The notes under the pieces: model-generated | Told to the model about the DNA's origin: nothing | The model's database searches: none | The model's input: the letters and a program-made list of their open reading frames with translations, nothing else | In this document: one piece after another, positions 3,729 to 59,110 of the stretch | Numbering within the stretch: the stretch's first letter is position 1 | Layout: every line of letters begins with the position of its first letter | Assembly (NCBI GenBank): GCA_945862535.1 | Contig: CAMAYG010000001.1 | Coordinates: forward strand, 18,731-82,730 | Origin: Rickettsia typhi | GTDB lineage: Bacteria; Pseudomonadota; Alphaproteobacteria; Rickettsiales; UBA1997 | Reading direction: 5' to 3' | Length of the DNA stretch: 64,000 bases | Program-made: the position numbers and the translations under genes

Positions 3729-4427
3729 TTAAAAAATACTATCGGTGTTGAAGCTGTTAAGCAGTTTTATTTTAACTTTTGCAGTACCTTGTGATTTAAA
3801 TTCTAGTGTTTCTGCTGCTTTTTCCGATAAATCTATTATTCTTCGATTGTCTGAATCTAAGGTTTTGTTTCTAACAAAAGGGCCTCTGTCGTTAATTTTC
3901 ACCACCACTGTTTTGTTGTTTTTAATGTTAGTTACCATTACCCAAGATGGTATTGGTAGTTTTGGATGGGCAGCGGTCATAAGTTGACTGTTAAATTTTT
4001 CTCCACTTGCCGTAGATTTTCCATTAAATTTTTTGCCATACCACGAGGCTATTCCAATATCTTCAAGATTACTAGTAGCATTATTTTTAACAATAGCTTT
4101 GCTTTGCTGATATTCCAATAAAGCATCGCCATCTACTAGTTCTAAAGGTTTACTCTTGTTAATATTTTTGATGTGTTGGTTTTTTGAGTCTATTTCCTGT
4201 AGTTCTTGCTGAAAAGATTTTAGAATCATATTTCCTTCGCTATCTTGTTGCTGTTGAAAATAATGATTTCCTACTTTGATTTTATTTTTTGAAATAGATT
4301 TGGTAAGTTTTTTTTGATTAGCAATCTTCTTGTTGATTGGGTTGGTTTTATTAGCTTTGTTATTTATGAAATGGCAAGAAGTGCTATTTAATAAGATTAA
4401 AGCGATAATAAATTTAAAGTATCTCAT
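3729..4427 (-). CDS. rlpA: Septal ring lytic transglycosylase RlpA family protein (DPBB domain), lipoprotein-like
   Basis: 232 aa. The hydrophobic N-terminus ends in Cys18. The DPBB core is ASWYGKKFNGKSTASGEKF..MTAAHPKLP.PS.V.VTN..NNKTVVVKINDRGPF. Confidence 0.85.
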   Translation of the reverse strand: MRYFKFIIALILLNSTSCHFINNKANKTNPINKKIANQKKLTKSISKNKIKVGNHYFQQQQDSEGNMILKSFQQELQEIDSKNQHIKNINKSKPLELVDGDALLEYQQSKAIVKNNATSNLEDIGIASWYGKKFNGKSTASGEKFNSQLMTAAHPKLPIPSWVMVTNIKNNKTVVVKINDRGPFVRNKTLDSDNRRIIDLSEKAAETLEFKSQGTAKVKIKLLNSFNTDSIF

Positions 4428-4502
4428 GGTTTATAGCTAAATGTTGGGAAATATTATTGAATATTTCGCAGATAGGTTTTGAAATCAAAGAAAAAGCAGA
4501 TA

Positions 4503-5231
4503 TTAGTTTGCAAATTCTTTGACTGTTAAATTTTCGGTAAGAGTAGTTTTGTTGATATTAATGGGGGAAGGGGTGGCTAGATATTCTGCCAGATATTCTG
4601 TTTTTGTTAATAAGAATATGCCATATTGTGCAAAAAAATTACTAAATAATTTAGTGGAAAATATCTTATTTAAAGTTTTTTTGTTGTCAAGGAATCTTTC
4701 TTCTACTATTGTGAAGCCCGATTTTTCGCATAGATTTTTAAAATCTAAAATCGAACAAAAGTGAATATTTGGTGTATCGAACCATTGAAAGGGAATATTC
4801 TTATTAACTGGCATTGTGCCTTTAAAAGCAAGGTGTATACGATTTTTAAAATGTGCAAAATTTGGTAAAGATATTATAGCAAATTTGGCGATTCTTAGCA
4901 TTTCTTCTAAAATTAGCTTCGGCTCTTGCATTGCCTGAATCGTTTGACTAAGTATTGCATAATCAAAACTTTCATCTGGGTAATAATGTAGTTGATTTTT
5001 GGCATCGCCCGTAATAACGGGAATGCCTTTTTTTATTGCCAATATTGCTTTTTTATGCGATATTTCTAGCCCGTAAACCGTGGCATCGTGTTTATTTTTT
5101 AACAGTGCTAATAAGTCTCCTTCGCCACATCCTATATCTAGAACTTTGGCCCTTTTTTTAATTAAATTAGAAATTATCTCGAGATCGTAACGAATGTTGT
5201 CGACCTTGATAATGCTTTGAGTTATTTCCAT
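4503..5231 (-). CDS. metW: Methionine biosynthesis protein MetW (methyltransferase-like)
   Basis: 242 aa with SAM-MTase motif VLDIGCGEGDLL. It lies directly downstream of metX, the conserved metXW arrangement. Confidence 0.85.
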   Translation of the reverse strand: MEITQSIIKVDNIRYDLEIISNLIKKRAKVLDIGCGEGDLLALLKNKHDATVYGLEISHKKAILAIKKGIPVITGDAKNQLHYYPDESFDYAILSQTIQAMQEPKLILEEMLRIAKFAIISLPNFAHFKNRIHLAFKGTMPVNKNIPFQWFDTPNIHFCSILDFKNLCEKSGFTIVEERFLDNKKTLNKIFSTKLFSNFFAQYGIFLLTKTEYLAEYLATPSPININKTTLTENLTVKEFAN

Positions 5232-5239
5232 AATATCTA

Positions 5240-6430
5240 CTAAAATTCTAAAAAGTTACAAATAAGATCTTCCATTTGCTTATTTTTGATTAAAAAAGAA
5301 TCGTGCCCGTTGCTACTATCGATGTTGATAGAGCTTACTTTGGCACCAATTGATAGTAGATTTGCTGTTAATTTTTCTAGTTCCGACGACGGAAAAAGCC
5401 AATCATCGCTAAAGCTCACTAAACAAAACTCTATATCTTTTGAATTGCAAAATGCTAAACTTAGACTGTTACCATTATCCTTTTCAAGATCGAAATAATC
5501 AACAGCTTTTGTAAGGCAAATATAGGAGTTAGGATCGAATCTTTCGGTAAAGTTCATCCCTTGATAATGTAGATAGTTCTCGATTTCAAATTTCTCTTTT
5601 TTTTGCTGATTGATATCTGAATAAAGTTTTTTGTCTTTCTGGATTTTTCTGCCAAATTTTTTTTGCAACAACTCTTCTGATAGATAGGTAATATTGGCAC
5701 TCATTCTTGCCAGAGCTAAACCGCGGGACGGAAATTTTTGATATTCTAAATATTCGCCGTCACAATAATCGGTATCTGTTATTATTGCCTGCCTGCCAAC
5801 TTCGTGAAAAGCAATATTTTGCGGAGTGTGGCGATATGATGTTGCTAGTGCTATTGCCTTTTTTAAGAAATTAGGGTATAAACTCGCCCAAGTCAAAGTT
5901 TGCATTCCGCCAAATGAACCGCCAATTACCGCATGTAATTTATTAATTTTAAAATGATTTTCAATGAAGAGTTTTTGTGCTTTTATTATGTCGTTAATTG
6001 TTATTTCTGGAAATTCTTTTCCATAAGCTTTTCCATGGGCTTTTTCATGGTCTTCTTCGTGGTATTGTTGATAGTTTTGGTTTATTGTTTTTGGCCCAAA
6101 TGAACCCATGCAACCACCAATAACATTAGTTACAATAACAAAAAACTTTTTGGTATCTATTGCCAAATCGTCGCCAATAACAAAGTTCCACCAGCCGTTC
6201 TTCTTAGTAACTGGGTTTTCCGATGCGGCATATTGATCGCCAGTTAAAGCATGGCAAACTAAGACTGCATTTGATTTTTCTGCATTTAGATTGCCATATG
6301 TTTGATAGGCGATAGGAAAATCTTTTACGATTTGCCCGCACTCCAAAGTTAAGCTTGATGTAATATTTACAATGTTGCCAATTTTAATTTTTTTATAATT
6401 ATTGCCAAAAACAAGTTCCTGAATATGCAT
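5240..6430 (-). CDS. metX: Homoserine O-acetyltransferase MetX
   Basis: 396 aa alpha/beta hydrolase. Motifs VCHALTGD, the nucleophile elbow GGSFGGMQ, and C-terminal S.GHDSFL. Contains a short His/Lys-rich insertion (HEEDHEKAHGKAYGKE). Confidence 0.9.
   Translation of the reverse strand: MHIQELVFGNNYKKIKIGNIVNITSSLTLECGQIVKDFPIAYQTYGNLNAEKSNAVLVCHALTGDQYAASENPVTKKNGWWNFVIGDDLAIDTKKFFVIVTNVIGGCMGSFGPKTINQNYQQYHEEDHEKAHGKAYGKEFPEITINDIIKAQKLFIENHFKINKLHAVIGGSFGGMQTLTWASLYPNFLKKAIALATSYRHTPQNIAFHEVGRQAIITDTDYCDGEYLEYQKFPSRGLALARMSANITYLSEELLQKKFGRKIQKDKKLYSDINQQKKEKFEIENYLHYQGMNFTERFDPNSYICLTKAVDYFDLEKDNGNSLSLAFCNSKDIEFCLVSFSDDWLFPSSELEKLTANLLSIGAKVSSINIDSSNGHDSFLIKNKQMEDLICNFLEF
6016..6051. repeat. 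In-frame 12-bp x3 imperfect tandem repeat inside metX
   Basis: Plus strand reads cttttccataag / cttttccatggg / ctttttcatggt at 6016, 6028 and 6040. It encodes the (K-A-x-G)-like insertion EKAHGKAYGKE of MetX. Confidence 0.7.
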
Positions 6431-6752
6431 TTTCTTTGATTTTTAGTAGCCAAGTTTAATTAAATTGAAAATATTTTGCTTTTTGCTAGTTAATTCTAAT
6501 GTAATAAAAATGCAATTAATAATTTAAATAAACCATGTTTTAAATTATTGTTTTTTATATCGTTAATCAAAATCAATAACACCAATTTATTACTTGCATT
6601 TTAAATAAAATCAAATTAATTTCTTTTTATTTTAAAATCTTTTTCTACTTTGTTAAATCGAGTTAAATCGGTTTCAAATTAGCAAAAATTAAGTCAAGAG
6701 CTAGTTTAATGCTAATCACAAATCAAGGAATAATCAGGTCAATTACTCAATT

Positions 6753-8066
6753 ATGCAAAAAAAAGTTTTAGTTATTGGTGGAGGCGGTAGGGAGCATGCG
6801 GTAACAATCGCTTTTTTAAAGTCTGAACATAAGCCAAAAGTTTTTGTTTTGCCTGGCAATGCTGGAACGGCAGAAATTGCTTTTAATGTAACAGGCATCG
6901 ACACAAAAGATCATCAAAAAATTATCGAATTTTGCAAAAAAGAGCAAATTGACCTTGTTTTTATTGGCCCTGAACAACCGTTAGTCGATGGTTTGGTCGA
7001 TGACTTAACTCTTGCAAATATTAAAGTTTTTGGCCCAAGTAAAGGGGCTTCTCAATTAGAAGGGTCAAAGATTTTTATGAAAAATCTTGTCGAAAAAAAC
7101 TCAATCCCCACAGCAGATTTTAAAGCTTTTACCGAATTACCCCTCGCTCTAGCCCATATTTCTAAAGCTAAACAATACCCTTTGGTTATTAAAACAGATG
7201 GCCTAGCCTCGGGAAAGGGTGTTGTAATTGCTAAAAATCACGATGAAGCAACTACTGCTATTGGCGAGTTTTTTAATGGTAAATTTGGCGAAGCTGGAAA
7301 GAAAATCATCGTCGAAGAATTTCTTGATGGTTTTGAGGTTAGTTATTTTGTAATTTGCGATGGTAAAAACTTTTTACCTATTGGCTTCGCCCACGATCAT
7401 AAAAAAATCGGTGAAAACGACACTGGGCTTAATACTGGCGGAATGGGAGCTTTTTCTCCTTCGCCATTTATTAACAAAAATATCGAAGAAAAAGTGATTC
7501 GTAAAATCATTTTACCAACTCTCAGGGCAATGGAAAAATCTGGTAATAGCTTTTCCGGCATTCTTTTTGCTGGCTTAATGATTGTAAAAGACGAGCCAAA
7601 GCTTCTGGAATATAATATTCGTTTTGGCGACCCCGAAACTCAGGTAATACTGCCAACAATTAAAAGCGATTTCTTTGAATTAATAGATAGTGCGGTCAAT
7701 AAAACACTTAATAATTTTAAAATAGAGCTTCACGAAGGTTTGAAAGCGGTTTGTTTGGTTGTTTCTGCTTTAGGTTATCCGCTGGATTATCAAAACGGAA
7801 TAGCAATAACATTGCCGAAAAATTTAAATAACGATTTTTATAGCAAAGGCAAGTTGCAAAATGCCGAAGGCTACATTCTTCACGCAGGGACAGTAAAAGA
7901 CGACAATGGTGTTTTATTATCTAACGGCGGTAGAGTCTTAAATATTGTTGCTACTGCTACTAATTTTAAAGATGCAATAAAATGTGTCTATGAAATTGCC
8001 GAAAATATTAACTGGTCCCATGGCTATTTTCGCAAAGACATTGCAAAAAGAGCCATTAATTTTTAA
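6753..8066 (+). CDS. purD: Phosphoribosylamine--glycine ligase PurD
   Basis: 437 aa. Starts KVLVIGGGGREHA. ATP-grasp core (VIKTDGLASGKGV, EEFLDG.E.S) and GGRVL near the C-terminus. Confidence 0.95.
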   Translation: MQKKVLVIGGGGREHAVTIAFLKSEHKPKVFVLPGNAGTAEIAFNVTGIDTKDHQKIIEFCKKEQIDLVFIGPEQPLVDGLVDDLTLANIKVFGPSKGASQLEGSKIFMKNLVEKNSIPTADFKAFTELPLALAHISKAKQYPLVIKTDGLASGKGVVIAKNHDEATTAIGEFFNGKFGEAGKKIIVEEFLDGFEVSYFVICDGKNFLPIGFAHDHKKIGENDTGLNTGGMGAFSPSPFINKNIEEKVIRKIILPTLRAMEKSGNSFSGILFAGLMIVKDEPKLLEYNIRFGDPETQVILPTIKSDFFELIDSAVNKTLNNFKIELHEGLKAVCLVVSALGYPLDYQNGIAITLPKNLNNDFYSKGKLQNAEGYILHAGTVKDDNGVLLSNGGRVLNIVATATNFKDAIKCVYEIAENINWSHGYFRKDIAKRAINF

Positions 8067-8324
8067 TCATGGGGCTATTTTCGCAAAGACATTGCAAAAA
8101 GAGCCATTAATTTTTAATCATGGGGCTATTTTCGCAAAGACATTGCAAAAAGAGCCATTAATTTTTAACCATGGGGCTATTTTCGCAAAGACATTGCAAA
8201 AAGAGCCATTAATTTTTAACCATGGGGCTATTTTCGCAAAGACATTGCAAAAAGAGCCATTAATTTTTAATCACAGGGCTATTTTCGCAAAGACATTGCA
8301 AAAAGAGCCATTAATTTTTAATCA
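8022..8324. repeat. 51-bp tandem repeat, 6 copies, derived from the last 15 codons plus stop of purD
   Basis: The unit ggctattttcgcaaagacattgcaaaaagagccattaatttttaatcatgg begins at 8022, 8073, 8124, 8175, 8226 and 8277. Copies differ only at the junction (aatcatgg, aatcatgg, aaccatgg, aaccatgg, aatcacag). Copy 6 diverges after aatca at 8324. Confidence 0.97.
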
Positions 8325-8365
8325 ATTTTCCATCATTTACTTTTTAATCATAAACTGCATTAACT

Positions 8366-9871
8366 ATGAAAATAAAATTTACCGAAAAATCATCTAAAGT
8401 TTCTGGAAATAAAAATACCAAGAAAGCTATTGCCAATCTAATGCTTTTTAGCGAAGAATCTTGCTCTAAAAGCAAAGATATCGAGCCAGAATTGGCAAAA
8501 AATCTTTTTTCCTTCGACGGTAAGCTTAATAAAGTTGCCAATGTCACCACGGTAGAAAATAATTCTCAATATTTAACATTTTTGTTTGGAATTGGCTCCA
8601 ATGCCGATGTTAAAAAATATCACGAACTAGATTATCAAAAGATTGGTGCCAAAATATTCAATGCTATAAATGCTAATAAAATCAACTCTCTTGTTATAAA
8701 AAATAACAATTTAATTAGCGATGAAAATTTAGCACATATCGCTTTTGGCATGTTATTGCAAAGCTATCGTTTTAATCAATATTTTGAAAAAAGAAAATCG
8801 GAAAAAGAAATTAGCTTAAACGAAGTAGAAATAATTATTACAGAGGCTAAAAAAGCCAATAGCTGTTTCGACGATCTATCTCTAGTTGCTCAAAATGTTT
8901 TTTTGGTAAGGAATCTGGTTTCTGAACCTGGTAATGTCTTAAATCCAGAAACTTATGCAAAATTTTGTCAAGAAATAAAGTGTAAAGGTCTTGAGATAGA
9001 AGTTTTAGACGAGGCAAAAATGTCGAAACTCGGAATGAATTCACTGCTTGGAGTTGGAATCGGCAGTGCTAAGAAGTCAAATTTAGTTATTCTTCGTTGG
9101 AACGGTGGCAAAAAAGACGATGCTCCTTTGGCTTTTGTTGGTAAGGGGGTAACTTTTGATACGGGAGGTATATCCATAAAACCTTCTGCCAATATGGAAG
9201 ATATGAAAACCGATATGGCGGGTTCTGCGGTTGTTGTTGGTTTATTAAAACTCTTAGCAGAAAGAAAAGCCAAAGTAAATGCTGTTGGTGTTATTGGTTT
9301 AGTAGAAAATATGCCTTCTGGCGAAGCTCAAAGACCGGGGGATGTTGTTAAATCTATGTCGGGTCAAACAATTGAAATTGTTAATACCGATGCCGAAGGT
9401 CGCTTAGTCCTTGCAGATGCTATTTATTATACAATAAATCAATTTAAGCCAAAAATACTAATAGATCTTGCCACTTTAACTGGTGCAATAATTGTTTGCC
9501 TTGCCGATATTTATGCTGGTCTTTTTTCTAATAACAAAGATTTAGCAGAGCAATTAATAGATTCTGGTGAAAAAACAGCCGAAAAGCTTTGGCAAATGCC
9601 AATTGGCTCGGAATACGACGAGATGATAAATTCTGATATCGCAGATATGAAAAATGTTGGTAGTGGTCGTGGAGCAGGTAGCACAACCGCCGCTCAATTC
9701 ATTAAGAGATTTATTTCTGACGAAGATGGTAAAGAGGTAAAATGGGCCCATCTAGATATAGCTGGAGTAGCATGGAAGGGTAAGGGCGATCAATTTGCAA
9801 CTAAAGGTGCCACTGGTTTTGGTTTGCGATTGCTAGATAGAATGGTTCGTGATTACTACGAAAATAAATAG
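8366..9871 (+). CDS. pepA: Leucyl aminopeptidase PepA (M17 family)
   Basis: 501 aa. M17 signature NTDAEGRLVLADA, plus VGKGVTFDTGG.S.KP and M..DM.G.A. Confidence 0.93.
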   Translation: MKIKFTEKSSKVSGNKNTKKAIANLMLFSEESCSKSKDIEPELAKNLFSFDGKLNKVANVTTVENNSQYLTFLFGIGSNADVKKYHELDYQKIGAKIFNAINANKINSLVIKNNNLISDENLAHIAFGMLLQSYRFNQYFEKRKSEKEISLNEVEIIITEAKKANSCFDDLSLVAQNVFLVRNLVSEPGNVLNPETYAKFCQEIKCKGLEIEVLDEAKMSKLGMNSLLGVGIGSAKKSNLVILRWNGGKKDDAPLAFVGKGVTFDTGGISIKPSANMEDMKTDMAGSAVVVGLLKLLAERKAKVNAVGVIGLVENMPSGEAQRPGDVVKSMSGQTIEIVNTDAEGRLVLADAIYYTINQFKPKILIDLATLTGAIIVCLADIYAGLFSNNKDLAEQLIDSGEKTAEKLWQMPIGSEYDEMINSDIADMKNVGSGRGAGSTTAAQFIKRFISDEDGKEVKWAHLDIAGVAWKGKGDQFATKGATGFGLRLLDRMVRDYYENK

Positions 9872-18060: not shown

Positions 18061-20133
18061 ATGACCAATTCAAAAGAACCGATATCGAACATTGATAACC
18101 TTAAAGAAACTGTCAAAGACTTAGTCTTAGATGAGGTAGAGATTAAAACAAAGAAAAATAGCCAAACAGATTACCAGCCAGAAGAGGTTAAAGAGAAAAA
18201 AGAGGTGACACCAAGACAGCAAAGAACCCTAACATTGCAGAAAAAATCTAGCCTAGAAAATGCAAAAGAAGAAGTTAAAAATTTAAAAAATCATCGCACC
18301 GGAGGTGTTTTTGATCTTGTATTCAACTCAGCAGATCGTCAGAAATTCAATGCCGAAGAACATAATCATAGCTCGGAACTAGATTCAGATGATTTAAATA
18401 AATATAGCGAAGAAAATATTCACGAATTACAAAAAAATGAAAGAGCTAAACAAGTCTCTTTTGAAAAAATATCTTTTGTTAATAAGGCTTTACCGCCCAA
18501 GTCGCAAACATCAAAGGACTACCAATCTTCCGACACGGAAGATTATCCCCCTTTGCAATACCCTAAATACAGCAACAACAATCTTTTTAATTCTAATAAT
18601 TACCGCGAAAGAAATGCTTCTTACGAGGATAGAGAAGAGTACAAAAACACAAAACCCGCTTATTATAACAATCAAGCACCAGCAAGTCAAAACACTTACA
18701 ACAATAATGGTTTTGACAATTACCAAAATAACTCAATCGATAAATCTTTTAATCATCAAGGAGCAAATCAGATGTCTGGTCGTCAATTTATTGACGATGA
18801 GAACGAGGAGTTTATTGATAATTTAACGGCAAATAAAGCCAATTCCCCTAATGCAAAAACCCTAGAGCTAAAAGAACTAAAAATTCAAAAAGTTGAAGGA
18901 CTTATCGAAATTGCCTCAAAAGAATATGGCATTGAAAACATTGGTGATTTAGGTCGTCAAGATATAATATATTACATTCTTAAGAATTTCTCCGAGCAGA
19001 ATCCTCAAAATGTGATTATTGGTGAGGGTGTATTAGAGATACTTCCAGACGGTTTTGGGTTTTTAAGAGCTCCAGAAACCAACTATTTTGCTGGCTCAGA
19101 CGATATATATGTTTCGCCGAGTCAAATTAAAAGATTCGCTTTAAAAACTGGCGACACTGTTCAAGGGCAAATTCGAGCACCAAAAAAAGGAGAAAAATAT
19201 TTTGCCTTACTACGAGTTAATCAAGTTAACTTCGATAAACCCGAAAAAATAAAGTATAGGGCATTATTTGACGATCTTACCCCAATCCACCCAAATAAAA
19301 AACTAATTCTGGAAACTCAAAATATTCAAAACAGAAGTGCTGGTAATGACACAAGAATTATCGACATGATCTCTCCTCTTGGCAAAGGGCAAAGAGCATT
19401 GATTGTCGCTCCTCCAAAAACCGGAAAAACTTCCTTAATGCAAAATATTGCAAAAGTAGTCTTGGAAGAAAATCCCGAGGTTTATTTGATAGTCTTATTA
19501 ATAGATGAAAGACCAGAGGAAGTAACTGATATGAAAAGAACTGTAAAGGCAGAGGTTGTTAGTTCTACATTCGATGAGCCAGCTAGCAGACATGTTCAAT
19601 TAGCGGAAATGGTTATTGAAAAAGCTTGCAGATTAGTTGAGGCAAAAAAAGATGTTGTGATTCTGCTAGATTCTATAACAAGACTTGCTAGAGCCTATAA
19701 CACTGTAATTCCTTCTTCTGGTAAAGTTTTAACTGGCGGTGTCGATTCTAATGCCCTACAAAGACCAAAAAGATTCTTTGGTGCAGCTAGGAATATCGAG
19801 GAGGGCGGATCCTTAACAATAATTGCCACTGCATTAATTGACACTGGTTCAAAAATGGACGAGGTTATTTTTGAAGAGTTTAAAGGAACCGGCAATTCGG
19901 AAATTGTTCTTGATCGCAAAATATCAGATAAGAGAATTTATCCTGCTATCGACATTACAAAATCTGGAACTAGAAAAGAAGAATTGCTAATTGAAAGGGC
20001 AGAATTAGCAAAAATTTGGATGCTAAGAAGGATTGTCAATCAAATGAATCCTGTAGAGGCGATGGAATTTTTGTTAGCAAAAATCGAAGGAAGCAAAACA
20101 AATGAAGACTTCTTTAGATCGATGAATTCTTAA
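18061..20133 (+). CDS. rho: Transcription termination factor Rho with ~267-aa N-terminal low-complexity extension
   Basis: 690 aa. From about aa 268 it is colinear with E. coli Rho: L.ELK......L.......GIEN......[41 protein letters not shown], Walker [41 protein letters not shown]. The upstream 267 codons are stop-free in an AT-rich context. Confidence 0.95.
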
Positions 20134-21437: not shown

Positions 21438-24400
21438 ATGTCACCACTAAAACATTTCTCAATATTTCTCTTAAAAAGTTTTTCACAATTTCTACAAAGG
21501 CAATCATTAGTCCTCTTTTTACCTTTCTCGCTGTTGGTTGGAGTGTGTTTTTACTATTTTTGTAGCAAATGTTCTGCTGACCATCAGGGCAAAACACTAG
21601 AAATCTTATTATTTTCATCGCTTCTTTTAGCTGTTTTAGCTTTGTCGATATTAATTTTAAACAACAAGAAGGATTGTTACATAAATAACAATTTAGCGAT
21701 TATTAACTATTTAAAGCTCCATCTGTTGCTTTTTATATTTTTTATTGTTCTGTCTTTCCTCTACACATTGATTTTTAATCGCTACTTAGTTAAAAGAAAT
21801 ATTGTTGTTAACCAATATTTATACGGAAATATAATAGCTAAGGTTGTCGATATTAATCAATCTAAAGTCTTCGGCAACAAAAAAGAAAGTATATTTATTC
21901 TTACAGTTGATGGAGTGACTTTTTACCGCGAGCTAGATGGCTATTCGAACAATAATTTAAAGCTAAGTAGTGTCAAAAATCATAGACCAAATCCAAAAAT
22001 AAAGAGAAACAGCAATAAATTAGAAGCATCAAAAGCTTATTATAATCAGAAATTAGGCAACGAAATAAAAAAATGCACAGAGCAATATTTAAAATTTTCC
22101 AACGAGTTTCGGCTTTGCAAAAATAAAGCTCAAGAAAAAGTAGAAATAAACATAAAAATTAGCGAATTAAACAAGCAAATAATTGACTCAGAGCTAGAAA
22201 TTACAAAATTAGATCTTTCTTCCATTGATAGCAAAAACATAACCAGCACAACTCTCTCAAACAAGAAAAATCGACTGATACTCGATGTTAAAGAAAGGCA
22301 AGATAAAATCTTTAAACTACAATGGAATGTAAAAATACCAGCAAAATATCAAAAAATTATTAATCGTTGCGAAGAAAAAGAAGAAATTGATATAAATTGT
22401 GAAGATGATGCTTTTAACAGGTATTTACTAGAAAAACAACAAATCAAAACCAAGGGCAAAACCAAGGGCAAAACCAAAGGTAAATCAACTAATGAGCAAA
22501 GTAAAGAATCTGAAGATAACTTGCAAAACGAAGATGTTGATTTAAATAAAAATAACACAGAAGGCCGAAAATCAAACGAAATTAATGAAGAATGCTTGCC
22601 GGTAATAGAAAATTCTAATTTAGCAGAGAGAAATAATGATGCCGAAGAGGCTAATGAACCAGATCATAGCAAAACAAGCAACGAAGAGGTAGAAAATATT
22701 ATTAGTGACATTATTAATCGCTACCAAAAAGATAAAACCAATGCTATTTTCGCTAAAAATATCGCTAGATGTTTAAAATATCAACTCTCAACAGAGGTTA
22801 GAGAGTGCCATAAAAATATTGTAATAAATTTTAAAAATTGGCAAAATAGTAAAGACAAGAAAATTAAAGAAGCATTAGCTCAAAATAAAATAAAAAAAGA
22901 GCTAAAAATAAAAGAGAAAAACAAGATTTCGATGTTTAAAATGATGAATTATCACGAAATTGGCAATAATCTAGACTTGTGGCAAGATTACGATAGAAAA
23001 TTTGCTACTAACGAGCGTGACTACTTTAAGTTAAATTTTAACAACAATCTCTCTGTTAACGGTCCAAAGAAAATCAAATTAGCTTACAAAATCAACAGAT
23101 CAAACGAAGCAATGCCAAAAATTGGCGACATAATAACGGCAAAGGTTGAAATTAGCCCCGTTTCGGGTAAGAGATTTTTTGGCGACTTTAATTTTCGCCT
23201 TGATTCAATAGTAAAAGGAATTGATGCTAAGGGTAAGATTATTAGCAATATTTACATTAACAACAACATAATAAGCGATAAAAATAATTTATTTTATCAA
23301 ATAGTTGACGATTCTTTTAATTCTAAATTATCACAATTCGATTTATTTATAAAAAATTTACGACAAAGAATTTTAGCAGAAATAAACGATGTCGCCAATA
23401 AACACCAAAACATTTCAGGTTTAACAAATAACGAAGAGTTGGTAAATATGGTTGGAGCATTTCTAATTGGCATGCAAAACCTTATTAATCAAGACACTAT
23501 GGTTAAAATTCAAAAATCTGGACTTGCTCATCTTGTTTCTATTTCTGGCCTACATTTAACCTTAGCCGGCCTAATATTTTTCTATATCGCGCTAACTTTT
23601 TGTAGCTTTAGTCAAAAATTAATGCTTAATGTCAATATTCGTAAAATAGCAGCATTTTTTGCGATATTTTCGGCATTCTTCTATTTACAATTAGCTGGTA
23701 GTCCTTTGCCAGCGGTTCGTGCCTTTTTAACTAGTGGATTACTAATGCTTGCGATCATATTAGATCGCGAAGTTGTTGCAATTAGAATCGTTGCCTTAGC
23801 AATGGTTTTGTTAACAATATATAATCCAGCCAATATATTTAGTGTAAGCTTTCAGCTTTCTTTTATTGCCATTGCCTCGATAATCTCTTTTAATAATTTG
23901 TTTTTTAACTTTATTGAAAATAATAAATTTTACAATAATTTTAAGTTTACCGAATCTAATTTTGTTAAGATAATTATAAAAATCTTAAAAGCTTTTATTG
24001 CTATAGCAATCTCTTCTGTTGTTGCAACCTTATCAACAGCCCCGTTCACAATTTACCATTTTGGAGTTATTAATCCGTTAGGAATTATATCAAATTTCCT
24101 TGCAATTCCATTGGTTAGCTTTGTTACAATGCCGTTAATATTCATTTCGTTAATTTTTATAATTCTGAAGTTGGTAATATTGGAGACCGTTAACCTTAGC
24201 TTTATTATAGCTACTATCAATTTTTTGTTAAAATATTTATTATATTGGTCATTTATATCTATTGACTGGCTAATGTTTATCGTAAATAAAGTGAGCAATA
24301 TGCCATTTAACACAATAAAATTTTACCACATTAATCATTATATTTGGCTACTTTCAATTATTTTTTTGTATTTTGCAATTGCCATAACGGGAAGAGTTAG

Positions 24401-25022
24401 GGGGTTTTTTCTATTAGCTTTCTGCCTTTTGATGTCATTAATTTTTTATAATCGCCTAGATTCATTTGTGGCATTTAGCCATAATAGGCAGTTTTTTGCT
24501 TATTACTTGTTAAAAAATCAATCAATACTCAATAATGAGAAGTATTTAATTTTTTCCGATTTGCCAAAATCACAAAAAATGCAAGATTTATGGCTGAAAG
24601 ATTTTAGCTTAGCAGATAGCGATAATTTTAACATTATTAATTTAGGGTTAAAAAGTGGAGGTTACAGAATTAGCAACGATTTAAACAATGGGTTGTTAAG
24701 CAGTTCTGTAGTTAATTTGAAGTTAATTGAATGTTACCAAACTTATTGTGTTTTAAAAATGAAAAATAGCGAAAGTAGATTTATTTTGCCTTATTTTAAC
24801 ACAAAGCCCTTAGAAAATCATATAATGGTAATAATAAAACGAAGTAATGAAAAAGAGATATGCAAAACTCTCAATAAAGATAAATTAATCACAACGGTAG
24901 TTAATTTAACAGGAAAATATGCCATGCCAAGATGTGTAGGCGATATTAAACAAATTAGAAAAATTGTCGATAATAAAGATTTTAACGATCGAGAGTTTTA
25001 TTATACGACTGGTAGCGATTAA
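21438..25022 (+). CDS. comEC: ComEC/Rec2-family DNA internalization channel with a ~380-aa insertion in the N-terminal OB-fold (DUF4131) region; no C-terminal metallo-beta-lactamase motif
   Basis: 1194 aa. N-terminal TM helices, then OB-like strands (IIAKVVDINQSK..SIFILTVDG and, about 400 aa later, PKIGDIITAKVEISPVSGKRFFGDFNF). Competence-domain motif KSGLAHLVSISGLHLTLAG is followed by many TM helices. I saw no HxHxDH in the C-terminal ~250 aa. Confidence 0.85.
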   Translation: MSPLKHFSIFLLKSFSQFLQRQSLVLFLPFSLLVGVCFYYFCSKCSADHQGKTLEILLFSSLLLAVLALSILILNNKKDCYINNNLAIINYLKLHLLLFIFFIVLSFLYTLIFNRYLVKRNIVVNQYLYGNIIAKVVDINQSKVFGNKKESIFILTVDGVTFYRELDGYSNNNLKLSSVKNHRPNPKIKRNSNKLEASKAYYNQKLGNEIKKCTEQYLKFSNEFRLCKNKAQEKVEINIKISELNKQIIDSELEITKLDLSSIDSKNITSTTLSNKKNRLILDVKERQDKIFKLQWNVKIPAKYQKIINRCEEKEEIDINCEDDAFNRYLLEKQQIKTKGKTKGKTKGKSTNEQSKESEDNLQNEDVDLNKNNTEGRKSNEINEECLPVIENSNLAERNNDAEEANEPDHSKTSNEEVENIISDIINRYQKDKTNAIFAKNIARCLKYQLSTEVRECHKNIVINFKNWQNSKDKKIKEALAQNKIKKELKIKEKNKISMFKMMNYHEIGNNLDLWQDYDRKFATNERDYFKLNFNNNLSVNGPKKIKLAYKINRSNEAMPKIGDIITAKVEISPVSGKRFFGDFNFRLDSIVKGIDAKGKIISNIYINNNIISDKNNLFYQIVDDSFNSKLSQFDLFIKNLRQRILAEINDVANKHQNISGLTNNEELVNMVGAFLIGMQNLINQDTMVKIQKSGLAHLVSISGLHLTLAGLIFFYIALTFCSFSQKLMLNVNIRKIAAFFAIFSAFFYLQLAGSPLPAVRAFLTSGLLMLAIILDREVVAIRIVALAMVLLTIYNPANIFSVSFQLSFIAIASIISFNNLFFNFIENNKFYNNFKFTESNFVKIIIKILKAFIAIAISSVVATLSTAPFTIYHFGVINPLGIISNFLAIPLVSFVTMPLIFISLIFIILKLVILETVNLSFIIATINFLLKYLLYWSFISIDWLMFIVNKVSNMPFNTIKFYHINHYIWLLSIIFLYFAIAITGRVRGFFLLAFCLLMSLIFYNRLDSFVAFSHNRQFFAYYLLKNQSILNNEKYLIFSDLPKSQKMQDLWLKDFSLADSDNFNIINLGLKSGGYRISNDLNNGLLSSSVVNLKLIECYQTYCVLKMKNSESRFILPYFNTKPLENHIMVIIKRSNEKEICKTLNKDKLITTVVNLTGKYAMPRCVGDIKQIRKIVDNKDFNDREFYYTTGSD
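22446..22481. repeat. In-frame 12-bp x3 tandem repeat inside the comEC insertion
   Basis: aaaaccaagggc / aaaaccaagggc / aaaaccaaaggt at 22446, 22458 and 22470. It encodes KTKG KTKG KTKG. Confidence 0.85.
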
Positions 25023-26745: not shown

Positions 26746-26759
26746 ATTAAAACAGTCAA
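26731..26759 (-). promoter_or_regulatory. Candidate sigma70-type promoter of the tonB operon (TTGACT - 17 nt - TATCAT)
   Basis: Read on the minus strand: cTTGACTgttttaataataatcatTATCATtttc. The -35 is at 26759-26754, the spacer is exactly 17 nt, and the -10 is at 26736-26731 (5/6 match each). Confidence 0.5.
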
Positions 26760-26791
26760 GAGATTTTTGATACCGATTATCAAAAATCTCT
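26759..26791 (-). terminator. Perfect 14-bp-stem hairpin 17 nt downstream of the thrS stop (putative thrS terminator)
   Basis: aagagatttttgata (26759-26772), loop ccgat, tatcaaaaatctct (26778-26791). All 14 pairs are Watson-Crick. On the minus strand it is followed by tgacTGTTTT, so the U-tract is not immediately adjacent. Confidence 0.45.
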
Positions 26792-26807
26792 CTAAATTTG
26801 GTATTTT

Positions 26808-35904: not shown

Positions 35905-35910
35905 ATAAAA

Positions 35911-35947
35911 AAACCTACCTTAAAATAGTTCGTTTCAAGGTAGGTTT
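35911..35947 (+). other. 11-bp-stem hairpin in the rpsB-tsf spacer
   Basis: aaacctacctt (35911-35921) and aaggtaggttt (35937-35947) with a 15-nt loop. It is flanked by A-runs, not by a 3' T-run, on the coding strand. Confidence 0.4.
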
Positions 35948-35969
35948 AAAAAAATTAAAATTTTAAAAT

Positions 35970-47905: not shown

Positions 47906-47983
47906 TGGGGCAGATGACGAGTCTCGAACTCGCGACCCTCAGAACCACAACCTGATGCTCTAACCAACTGAGCTACACCTGCC
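47906..47983 (-). tRNA. tRNA-His (anticodon GTG) with genomically encoded G-1, C73 and CCA
   Basis: Reverse complement: G-GCAGGTG-TA-GCTC-AGTTGGTTA-GAGC-A-TCAGG-TTGTGGT-TCTGA-GGGTC-GCGAG-TTCGAGA-CTCGT-CATCTGC-C-CCA. It folds as a cloverleaf with a 7-bp acceptor stem plus the extra G-1:C73 pair, U8/A9, GG in the D-loop, TTCGA in the T-loop and anticodon loop TT-GTG-GT. Confidence 0.92.
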
Positions 47984-48063
47984 AAATGATTATATAGCCA
48001 AAATAGCTTTATTTTTAAAACATGCAAATAAATACATTATTTTAAAAAGATACCACAAAATAA

Positions 48064-57304: not shown

Positions 57305-59110
57305 ATGTTCATAAAAAAACTTTCTAAATTGTTAAAAAATAACAAGAATCAACACTTCAAAAATAAATTCAAAAAGGTAATTTTAGCTCTAAAAGTTTTA
57401 CTAGTTACTAATTTGGTGTTAATAGTTGTATCTTCATGCTCCACGGCACTTAAAAAAGACAATAAAACTAAAAAAAAGAACATATTCGATTACCAGAATT
57501 TCGACAATGAGGCGAATCTTACACAGAACGATGTCGAGAAGGTTTTTAATAAAAATATTGCCAAAAATAACAAACATTTACCAAAGACAGATCAAAAAAC
57601 ACCCGAGGTTCAGGCGGTAAATATTCCAAAATTTTCAAGAATGATAGTGTCTCCACCGCCTCCAAAAATAGGCGGAGACAAAATGATATCTTTTTCAACA
57701 ACAGATCAGGTGCCACTTAAGGATGCACTATTAGAGCTCGGGAGAGTTGCTAATATCGATATTGATATCGACAAAAATATCGATGCAAGAATAATCTTAA
57801 ATGCAAAAAATAGACCGTTAACAGAGGTTTTAGACCGAGTAGCAAGCTTAGCAAATATAATATATTCCTACAAAAATGGAGTGTTGTATTTTGAACAAGA
57901 CAAACACTTTAATAAAAATTACTTTGTTGATTTTTTATCAAATAGTAATATTTGGGAGAATGTGGAAGAGAATATTAAAGAAATTATAAGTAATAGTGCT
58001 ACAGAAAAGGTTGCTGAAGATAAAAATCAGAACACTAGTAACGGTAGTGTTAAAATCAATAAAAATGCCGGGCTAATTAGTGTTTTTGCAAATAGCCAAC
58101 AGCACCAAAATATAAAAAAATACCTAGAAGATGTCTTAGCAGGCTCTTCTTCTCAGGTTTTAATTGAAGCTAAAGTTGTCGAAGTTAATCTGGGTAAAGA
58201 CTTTCAAACAGGAGTAAATTGGAACTATCTTGGCAATAAAGTTGGCACATTGTTAACGGAACTACCAGGACGATTAATAAATGAAACAGTAGCGGGGGTA
58301 GCGGCGGTCGGAGGAGGGATCTCAGATATCGCAAAATTACCACCATTAACGCCTATAAATTCTATTTTCTCAAACTACTATTACAATTCGGCACCACGAC
58401 CTGCACTAACCCTACAGATGACACTAGATCAGCAAAATATAGATTTCACAATGAGATTTTTGGAGCAATTTGGAACTATGCGAGCTTTGTCAAGCCCTAG
58501 GATAGGAGCCATGAACAACCAACAATCAACTTTAGATTTTTCAGAAAAATATATCTATTTTACCGTTGAAGCTAGTCAATCAACAACAATCGCCTCTTCT
58601 GCCAACACAGGACCATCTCAAAACAGCACTGTTTTAACTTATAAAAAAGAAGAAGAGTCGATTGGTACAAAACTTAAAATTACTCCATCTATCAATATAG
58701 AGGAGAAGGAAATATCACTAATAATTGAACCAACTCTCTCAACAAAAGTAGGCGACGTTTTAGAGCCATCAATCAACCCCAGCACTGGTCTATCTCTAAA
58801 CAATAAAATACCTATTATCAAAACTAGAACGCTTAACACTACAGCAAAAATTAGAAGCGGAGAAGTTTTGGTAATAGGCGGTTTGCTTAACGAATCTTCA
58901 GTAAATAACTATGTTGGGGTTCCATTAATTTCTAGACTACCTTTTATCGGATCTTTATTTAGATACAAGATTAAAAACACTCAAACTATTGAAACTGTTA
59001 TTTTTATTAAGGCAACAATAGTAGATAAATATAACGGTGTATCAAAAACAGACAAATTATTTCATGATAAATTTACTGTTGATAATAAAAAATTCCTAAA
59101 CAACAAATAA
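57305..59110 (+). CDS. Secretin-family outer-membrane channel (GspD/PilQ/MshL-like), probable lipoprotein
   Basis: 601 aa. Basic N-terminus, hydrophobic stretch and lipobox-like VSSC (Cys45). An N-domain (ISFSTTDQVPLKDALLELGR...) is followed by the secretin core: QVLIEAKVVEV......G.NW, MRALSSPRI...NQQ, GEVLVIGGL.......VGVP..SRLP.IG.LFR......T..E.VIFI.ATIV. Confidence 0.85.
   Translation: MFIKKLSKLLKNNKNQHFKNKFKKVILALKVLLVTNLVLIVVSSCSTALKKDNKTKKKNIFDYQNFDNEANLTQNDVEKVFNKNIAKNNKHLPKTDQKTPEVQAVNIPKFSRMIVSPPPPKIGGDKMISFSTTDQVPLKDALLELGRVANIDIDIDKNIDARIILNAKNRPLTEVLDRVASLANIIYSYKNGVLYFEQDKHFNKNYFVDFLSNSNIWENVEENIKEIISNSATEKVAEDKNQNTSNGSVKINKNAGLISVFANSQQHQNIKKYLEDVLAGSSSQVLIEAKVVEVNLGKDFQTGVNWNYLGNKVGTLLTELPGRLINETVAGVAAVGGGISDIAKLPPLTPINSIFSNYYYNSAPRPALTLQMTLDQQNIDFTMRFLEQFGTMRALSSPRIGAMNNQQSTLDFSEKYIYFTVEASQSTTIASSANTGPSQNSTVLTYKKEEESIGTKLKITPSINIEEKEISLIIEPTLSTKVGDVLEPSINPSTGLSLNNKIPIIKTRTLNTTAKIRSGEVLVIGGLLNESSVNNYVGVPLISRLPFIGSLFRYKIKNTQTIETVIFIKATIVDKYNGVSKTDKLFHDKFTVDNKKFLNNK

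Follow-up and report, generated by a model that had tools for sequence, protein, structure and literature searches.

Hairpin-containing intergenic variable repeats of Wolbachia have been ascribed to slipped-strand mispairing (PMC3287509), and in Ehrlichia ruminantium tandem repeats are sites of genome expansion and contraction (PMC10710844). About half of the tandem repeats of Borgs are intergenic or begin inside a gene end (PMC9879509), and mycobacterial interspersed repetitive units (MIRU) form intercistronic tandem arrays of ~50-bp units in co-directional gene clusters (PMC12548453). The locus described here is a tandem array of 51-bp units between purD (phosphoribosylamine--glycine ligase) and pepA (leucyl aminopeptidase), contained in a stretch of 64,000 nt (hereafter the window) that corresponds to positions 18,731 to 82,730 of contig CAMAYG010000001.1 in GenBank assembly GCA_945862535.1. 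The host belongs to an uncultured and sparsely sampled freshwater alphaproteobacterial lineage of low G+C content (~32%). The array is probably a lineage-specific and still-changing minisatellite, a variable number tandem repeat (VNTR) produced by hairpin-promoted replication slippage and close to neutral in effect. By mechanism and behaviour it matches the known class of bacterial intergenic variable repeats.

Tandem Repeats Finder, applied to the 64-kb window, placed the array at 8022-8324 with a period of 51, 5.9 copies, 98% matches, 0% indels and a score of 578, which makes it the top-scoring tandem repeat of the window; the runner-up scored 72. A 45-nt core, GGCTATTTTCGCAAAGACATTGCAAAAAGAGCCATTAATTTTTAA, occurs six times without any mismatch, with starts at 8022, 8073, 8124, 8175, 8226 and 8277. 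With up to 3 mismatches allowed, the core has no further occurrence in the window, and 100 shuffles yielded 0 matches. Six 51-bp units are thus arranged as in a minisatellite, head to tail, within the size range of 10-100 bp and with high mutual identity. The TIGR00877 model spans residues 4-435 of the 437 residues of PurD, which identifies copy 1 as the genuine purD terminus. The first-pass annotation of this DNA had reported the six units with copy 1 as the purD terminus, stop codons at 8064, 8115, 8166, 8217, 8268 and 8319, the junction variants tcatgg (twice), ccatgg (twice) and cacag (once), and short MGLFSQRHCKKSH open reading frames (ORFs); all of these are present in the sequence as it described them.

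The array is better phased from position 8016. Each unit then consists of a 6-nt hexamer followed by the invariant 45-nt core, comprises 17 codons and is translated as x-x-GYFRKDIAKRAINF-stop in all six copies. Phased in this way the array contains exactly 6.0 units (8016-8321), after which TCA follows, and the repeated segment is identified as the last 16 codons of purD together with the TAA stop codon. In PurD the hexamer stands for residues 422-423 (SH, SQ or PN, depending on the lineage), the sole variable spot within the 16 C-terminal residues copied by the unit. The junctions had earlier been observed to differ from the sequence upstream of the purD terminus; the mismatch is explained by the origin of the hexamers, which derive from purD codons 422-423 and have since diverged. 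TCACAG differs from the native TCCCAT at two third-codon positions only, and CCATGG is identical to native positions 8018-8023. The native upstream sequence at the start of unit 1 reads TCC, not TCA. The coordinates of the individual features are compiled in Table 1.

Table 1. Features of the purD-pepA locus, in window coordinates.
Feature	Position	Strand	Description
purD (phosphoribosylamine--glycine ligase)	6753-8066	+	437 aa; TIGR00877, E 1.6e-143, residues 4-435
Unit 1 (native)	8016-8066	+	Hexamer TCCCAT, dipeptide SH; core ends in the purD TAA
Unit 2	start 8067	+	Hexamer TCATGG, dipeptide SW; invariant core ending in TAA
Unit 3	8118-8168	+	Hexamer TCATGG, dipeptide SW; invariant core ending in TAA
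Unit 4	start 8169	+	Hexamer CCATGG, dipeptide PW; invariant core
Unit 5	8220-8270	+	Hexamer CCATGG (8220-8225), dipeptide PW; invariant core
Unit 6	8271-8321	+	Hexamer TCACAG, dipeptide SQ (as in the single-copy relative); adjoins the native spacer
TCA	8322-8324	+	Start of the native spacer; the same 3 nt open units 2, 3 and 6
Native purD-pepA spacer	8322-8365	+	44 nt; aligns collinearly with the 43 nt that separate purD and pepA in L005 and L008 (single copy)
33-nt quasi-palindrome	8022-8054; again from 8073, 8124, 8175, 8226 and 8277	+	GGCTATTTTCGCAA-AGACA-TTGCAAAAAGAGCC; 12/14 positions pair
ORF through the array	7984-8397	+ (+1 frame)	137 aa; regarded as an accidental result of the repetition of a frame without stops
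pepA (leucyl aminopeptidase)	8366-9871	+	501 aa; NF002077, E 1.3e-185

The exact PurD and PepA proteins are present on metagenome contigs of the ENA. Contig L001 (ERZ27280300) is 100% identical to window positions 3753-8171 (4,419 nt) and stops after 2.9 units. Contigs L002 (ERZ27280300) and L003 (ERZ27280301) begin inside the array, at window positions 8189 and 8219, and extend into pepA; each contains a partial core or junction and, after it, at least 2 complete cores. The alignment of L002 with the window has 3 mismatches in 4,683 nt, at 8220, 8223 and 8224, and all of them lie in the hexamer of unit 5, which reads TCACAG in both L002 and L003 as opposed to CCATGG in the window. L003 has the same three changes in unit 5 and three others in rsmG. 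At least two array alleles exist on backgrounds without any other difference over ~9 kb. The identity of L001, together with the confinement of the L002 differences to one hexamer, indicates that the array changes faster than point substitutions accumulate.

All three contigs are MEGAHIT k141 products from ERZ27280300 and ERZ27280301, and all break inside the array (L001 at 8171). Such breaks in related short-read assemblies, and the disagreement of the right-hand contigs with the window at one unit, would fit a mis-joined or mis-counted repeat. An assembly artefact of this kind is nevertheless very unlikely, as three independent contigs from two other assemblies carry several consecutive units on unique flanks, and the hexamer order (t, t, c, c, cacag) is non-redundant and could presumably be resolved by reads or k-mers of at least 141 nt. 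The specific concern that a single copy had been falsely multiplied is dispelled by at least 2.9 copies in L001 and at least 2 full cores in L002 and L003. With this contig support the repetition is real, and an error could concern only the precise count or allele; the six-copy count stands for one resolved allele.

Only three other full-length variants (P0127, P0122 and P0001) are contained in the PurD cluster at 90% identity. P0127 (Logan SRR23086393, contig L005; also contig L008, SRR31616043) shows 92-94% nucleotide identity to the window. Both contigs of this lineage contain one copy and a purD-pepA spacer of 43 nt, and in BLAST searches unit 1 and unit 6 align to one and the same L005 segment. 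A single copy with a 43-nt spacer in relatives of 92-94% identity identifies the array as a 255-bp insertion specific to the sub-lineage of the window; the spacer would measure 44 nt in its absence, a length typical for the window. The comparison with relatives that had been suggested in the first-pass annotation thereby yielded one copy each in L005 and L008. The earlier view that the spacer is filled by recently reiterated copies of the purD 3' end is supported. VNTR-like behaviour, which had also been proposed, is seen in the absence of the array from these relatives and in unit composition that differs between otherwise identical sequences. Structural differences between close strains are accordingly documented twice, by the single-copy relatives and by the unit 5 hexamer of L002 and L003.

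The remaining two variants originate from JGI 3300059473, the Lake Mendota 20-year co-assembly (PMC11374980), and carry the PurD dipeptide PN. The purD-pepA spacer of P0122 measures 161 nt and exceeds the single-copy length by 117 nt, a number not divisible by 51, and the contig of P0001 ends 16 nt past the purD stop codon. These contigs hint at further variation at the purD-pepA site, and the Lake Mendota site may hold an independent or differently structured expansion. The next relatives of PurD, ~60% identical, derive from alphaproteobacterial bins labelled Pelagibacterales or Rickettsiales. A PurD search of genome contigs returned only a 39%-identical Clostridium fragment and no close species representative, and a search of metagenome contigs returned only a 42%-identical locus. 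Four proteins of 42-55 aa (P0123-P0126, MIKSNVYQGKGDSGG...), which are unrelated to PurD, are filed in the same 90% cluster; this looks like an artefact of database clustering and not like a feature of the locus.

The array matches Wolbachia VNTR-105 and VNTR-141 in mechanism and behaviour (PMC3287509). Shared features are the intergenic head-to-tail arrangement in a low-G+C alphaproteobacterium, the highly conserved unit sequence, and a copy number or structure that varies between close strains; for the Wolbachia repeats, unit hairpins were proposed as triggers of slippage, and concerted evolution was also invoked. The purD array differs in its shorter units (51 bp), in its restriction to a single locus in 64 kb, and in that its units visibly derive from the coding 3' end of the adjacent gene, including the stop codon. 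Mechanism and behaviour also match the Borg gene-end repeats (PMC9879509), with which the array shares perfect units, recent and lineage-specific origin and partial repeats at the flanks. The Borg repeats are, however, pervasive, A-rich and located on archaeal extrachromosomal elements, whereas the palindromic unit described here occupies one locus on a bacterial chromosome. From the parallel to E. ruminantium that had been drawn in the first-pass annotation, the mechanistic part holds, namely slippage-driven expansion and contraction of units in non-coding DNA, with duplicated gene ends as a possibility (PMC10710844). The genome-wide pattern does not: the repeats of E. ruminantium occur throughout a genome with ~64% coding density and long spacers, whereas the window is ~90% coding with a median spacer of ~30 nt and contains one array that scores above 72.

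The founding event was probably a 51-bp tandem duplication, with a short TC(A) microhomology as the site of slipped-strand mispairing. A short direct repeat at the array boundary, as expected for a slipped-strand product, is found in the TCA that follows unit 6; this trinucleotide is a candidate for the microhomology itself or for a partial flanking repeat of the first duplication. The founding unit may have measured 51 nt (TCNCAN plus the core, with TCACAG separated from the native hexamer by one or two changes at third positions) or else 49 nt with a subsequent GG insertion, the latter alternative being suggested by CCATGG, which equals native positions 8018-8023 shifted by 2 nt. Later copies would have been added by slippage or by unequal recombination between identical units. 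Either process is supported by the identical neighbour pairs (SW-SW and PW-PW in the window, SQ-SQ in L002), and the earlier statement that neighbouring units share variants is thus correct. The 33-nt quasi-palindrome of each unit probably predisposed the site to slippage. A template switch at this quasi-palindrome was considered as the origin of the hexamer variants and rejected, as the predicted ..TTAAT does not match the observed hexamers. Tolerance of the array may be due to its boundaries, with copy 1 keeping the native upstream sequence and the last copy the native spacer. PurD and the proximal pepA 5' region are unchanged in consequence, and the insertion would therefore be close to neutral, even in a compact genome.

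A second repeat of this type is located 2 kb from the array in metX (5240-6430, minus strand), which lies upstream of purD on the opposite strand. The gene contains a 12-bp in-frame tandem repeat (3.2 copies, 6016-6054) that corresponds to an HGKA-type insert. Among relatives of 95-99% identity the length of MetX ranges from 387 to 399 aa, with all indels located exactly at this insert. The metX repeat is a second slippage-type polymorphism and shows that slippage is an active process in this lineage. The contigs with metX variants (L009-L013) all stop before the 3' end of purD.

Each unit also contains a hairpin followed by a T-run, which had gone unnoticed in the first-pass annotation. The quasi-palindrome occupies core positions 1-33 (GGCUAUUUUCGCAA / AGACA / UUGCAAAAAGAGCC) and is followed by AUUAAUUUUUAA, with ATTAATTTTTAA as the T-run segment. 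Folding energies of a single unit are -10.8 to -12.7 kcal/mol as RNA (z -2.8 to -3.1) and -8.6 and -9.1 kcal/mol for the two strands of the DNA, and among all 40-nt windows on both strands of the 64 kb the hairpin belongs to the 0.5% with the strongest folding. The single-copy relative has six synonymous differences in the core and is without the array hairpin; its stem measures 6 bp only, with -5.7 kcal/mol as DNA (51-nt unit, z -2.3) and an RNA z of -1.6 (76-nt context). No family was assigned in an Rfam search, which returned only eukaryotic microRNA hairpin models far below thresholds. Judged from its sequence, the hairpin with its T-run looks like a terminator-like element. Like Rho-independent and tandem terminators it combines a stem-loop with a U-rich tract within 1-3 nt at a gene end, but its stem is AT-rich with two internal mismatches and overlaps coding sequence in unit 1, the reiteration results from duplication and not from design, and the termination activity is only predicted. 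The six stacked weak terminator-like modules of the purD-pepA junction may have a side effect on read-through; the most likely physiological consequence would be that these modules of hairpin plus U-tract lower the transcription that runs on from purD into pepA, with an effect proportional to copy number.

Hairpins with perfect stems and A or T runs are also found between genes of the window at ~4990-5030, ~26753-26795, ~35909-35948 and ~57645-57685. Their form resembles that of canonical, partly bidirectional intrinsic terminators and shows that the organism uses this type. The window also encodes the Rho termination factor (18061-20133, plus strand, 690 aa), in which the canonical Rho region extends over residues 270-689 and is preceded by an N-terminal extension of ~270 aa.

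Several observations weigh against a near-neutral minisatellite made by hairpin-promoted slippage. The variation seen so far consists of unit composition between near-identical sequences and of presence or absence across relatives, not of copy number. The unit stem, with two internal mismatches, does not reach the strength of the clear terminators found at other places of the window, and the simple terminator scan did not call it: the stem of 12-14 pairs, at the RNA energies given above and followed by AUUAAUUUUU, remained without a call by consensus. All differences between units fall into the 6-nt hexamer and none into the 6 x 45 nt (270 nt) of the core. By parsimony at least 5 substitutions occurred overall and at least 3 among the non-coding units, and under uniform neutral mutation the probability of hexamer-only variation is 1.6e-3 down to 2e-5. 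The invariant part coincides exactly with the hairpin (33 nt) and the T-run segment (12 nt). Hexamer-only variation is not predicted by simple neutral debris. Possible causes of the invariant core are selection, very frequent homogenisation or concerted evolution, and a mutation-prone hot spot in a single-stranded linker.

Selection is the basis of a different explanation, by which the array is a cis-regulatory device, a tunable stack of purD terminators or of mRNA-stabilising 3' hairpins that insulates pepA-murA-rsmG-ybeY and whose cores are kept by selection. It would account for the exact match of the invariant core to hairpin and T-run with substitutions in the linker only (P at most 1.6e-3), and it agrees with the specificity of the hairpin for the array-bearing lineage, with the use of hairpin and T-run terminators elsewhere (for instance near 35909 and 4990), and with the position of the functionally unrelated purD and pepA in a co-directional cluster with short spacers. 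Yet the loop and mismatch positions, which should be free to vary, are invariant as well, so that recency or homogenisation must be invoked in any case; the imperfect stem is of modest strength and escaped the terminator scan; and in close relatives a single copy with an even weaker hairpin suffices. A selected device of this kind is therefore regarded as unlikely. More specifically, the contrast between invariant cores and variable linker could be read as a copy-number-variable terminator rheostat, in which slippage adds or removes modules of hairpin plus U-tract and so tunes read-through from purD into pepA-murA-rsmG-ybeY. If true, it would constitute a contingency locus that acts at the level of termination, its core kept by selection or conversion while the linker drifts; such a rheostat is distinctly improbable.

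The period of the array is a multiple of 3, and one frame is open from the ATG at 8020 in purD to 32 nt inside pepA, as stated in the first-pass annotation and listed as ORF 7984-8397. On these grounds the array could be taken as coding, either for a new repeat protein of 137 aa composed of GAIFAKTLQKEPLIFNH modules in the +1 frame or, through read-through of the purD stop codon, for SWGYFRKDIAKRAINF modules added to PurD. In a variant of this reading, translation of the 137-aa ORF would be coupled to that of purD and pepA; a proposal of this kind exists for the MIRU elements of mycobacteria, from which ORFs coupled to the neighbouring genes have been described (PMC12548453). A coding role is extremely unlikely, and the earlier coding readings, both of the open frame and of read-through modules, are not sustained. 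No homologue of the 137-aa ORF was found among 5.8 billion proteins. At the base composition of the window a 17-codon frame is open with P ~0.25, so that about one open frame is expected among the five others, and one period in three would be a multiple of 3 a priori. The purD frame is closed in each unit by a TAA with T or C as the next base, an obvious Shine-Dalgarno sequence is lacking, and a pattern of synonymous-only variation is missing because the cores are invariant. The unit thus lacks the features of a coding tandem repeat, being closed by a stop codon in the purD frame, with a homologue-free +1 ORF that is expected by chance.

The comparison with MIRU-VNTR rests on the intercistronic tandem units of ~50 bp in a co-directional cluster and on an ORF that overlaps its neighbours (PMC12548453). 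MIRUs are, in contrast, dispersed, apparently mobile and inserted at start codons with a -4 overlap, whereas the unit of the array is unique to its locus in the window and the ORF stops at 8397, 32 nt inside pepA, and not at a -4 or -1 coupling overlap. The '-35-like TTGCAA' that had been pointed out in each unit is not accompanied by a credible -10 element; a promoter in each unit was rejected, the promoter scan making no call in the array and TTGCAA-17-TAATCA matching only 2/6 positions of a -10 element.

Palindromic units and the presence of genes for ComEC and a pilus secretin would fit another reading, a dispersed repeat that is mobile or bound by a protein, be it a palindrome resembling repetitive extragenic palindromic (REP) elements or miniature inverted-repeat transposable elements (MITE), a DNA uptake sequence, an iteron or a regulator box. 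This is hardly credible, for the unit sequence is the coding 3' end of purD itself, and in the window no second copy exists at up to 3 mismatches and no 11-12-nt k-mer recurs beyond AT-rich chance; no Rfam family is known for it either. Occurrence at multiple unlinked loci, which characterises REP elements and the bacterial interspersed mosaic elements (BIME), MITEs and uptake sequences, was not observed within the window. The CGCAAA...TTGCAA halves loosely recall the E. coli PurR box, from which they differ in half-site spacing.

Downstream of pepA lies murA. Elsewhere in the window, a ComEC/Rec2-like ORF (21438-25022, plus strand) is unusually long with 1194 aa, and the ComEC domains cover only residues ~550-970; its N-terminal part includes tandem repeats at 22445-22477 (12 bp, 2.8 copies) and 22877-22921 (23 bp, 2 copies). 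The pilus secretin gene is located at 57305-59110. The only tRNA gene of the window (47909-47982, minus strand) is adjoined by a degenerate 28-bp repeat at 47999-48062 (2.2 copies, 72% matches).

The purD-pepA array is real, but it is probably an ordinary kind of slippage product, and the established picture of such repeats is unchanged by it. It provides a clean snapshot of a gene 3' end with a terminator-like hairpin that has been reiterated in an otherwise compact genome, and its invariant core next to a variable linker poses a small, testable puzzle of concerted evolution versus selection in bacterial minisatellites. In practical terms, the array causes short-read assemblies of the organism to break between purD and pepA. 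At the same time it offers a strain marker of high resolution, ready for use, for an uncultured low-G+C freshwater alphaproteobacterial lineage. If the array-bearing lineage occurs in the Lake Mendota time series, as a related lineage does, existing reads could be used to track its alleles over time.

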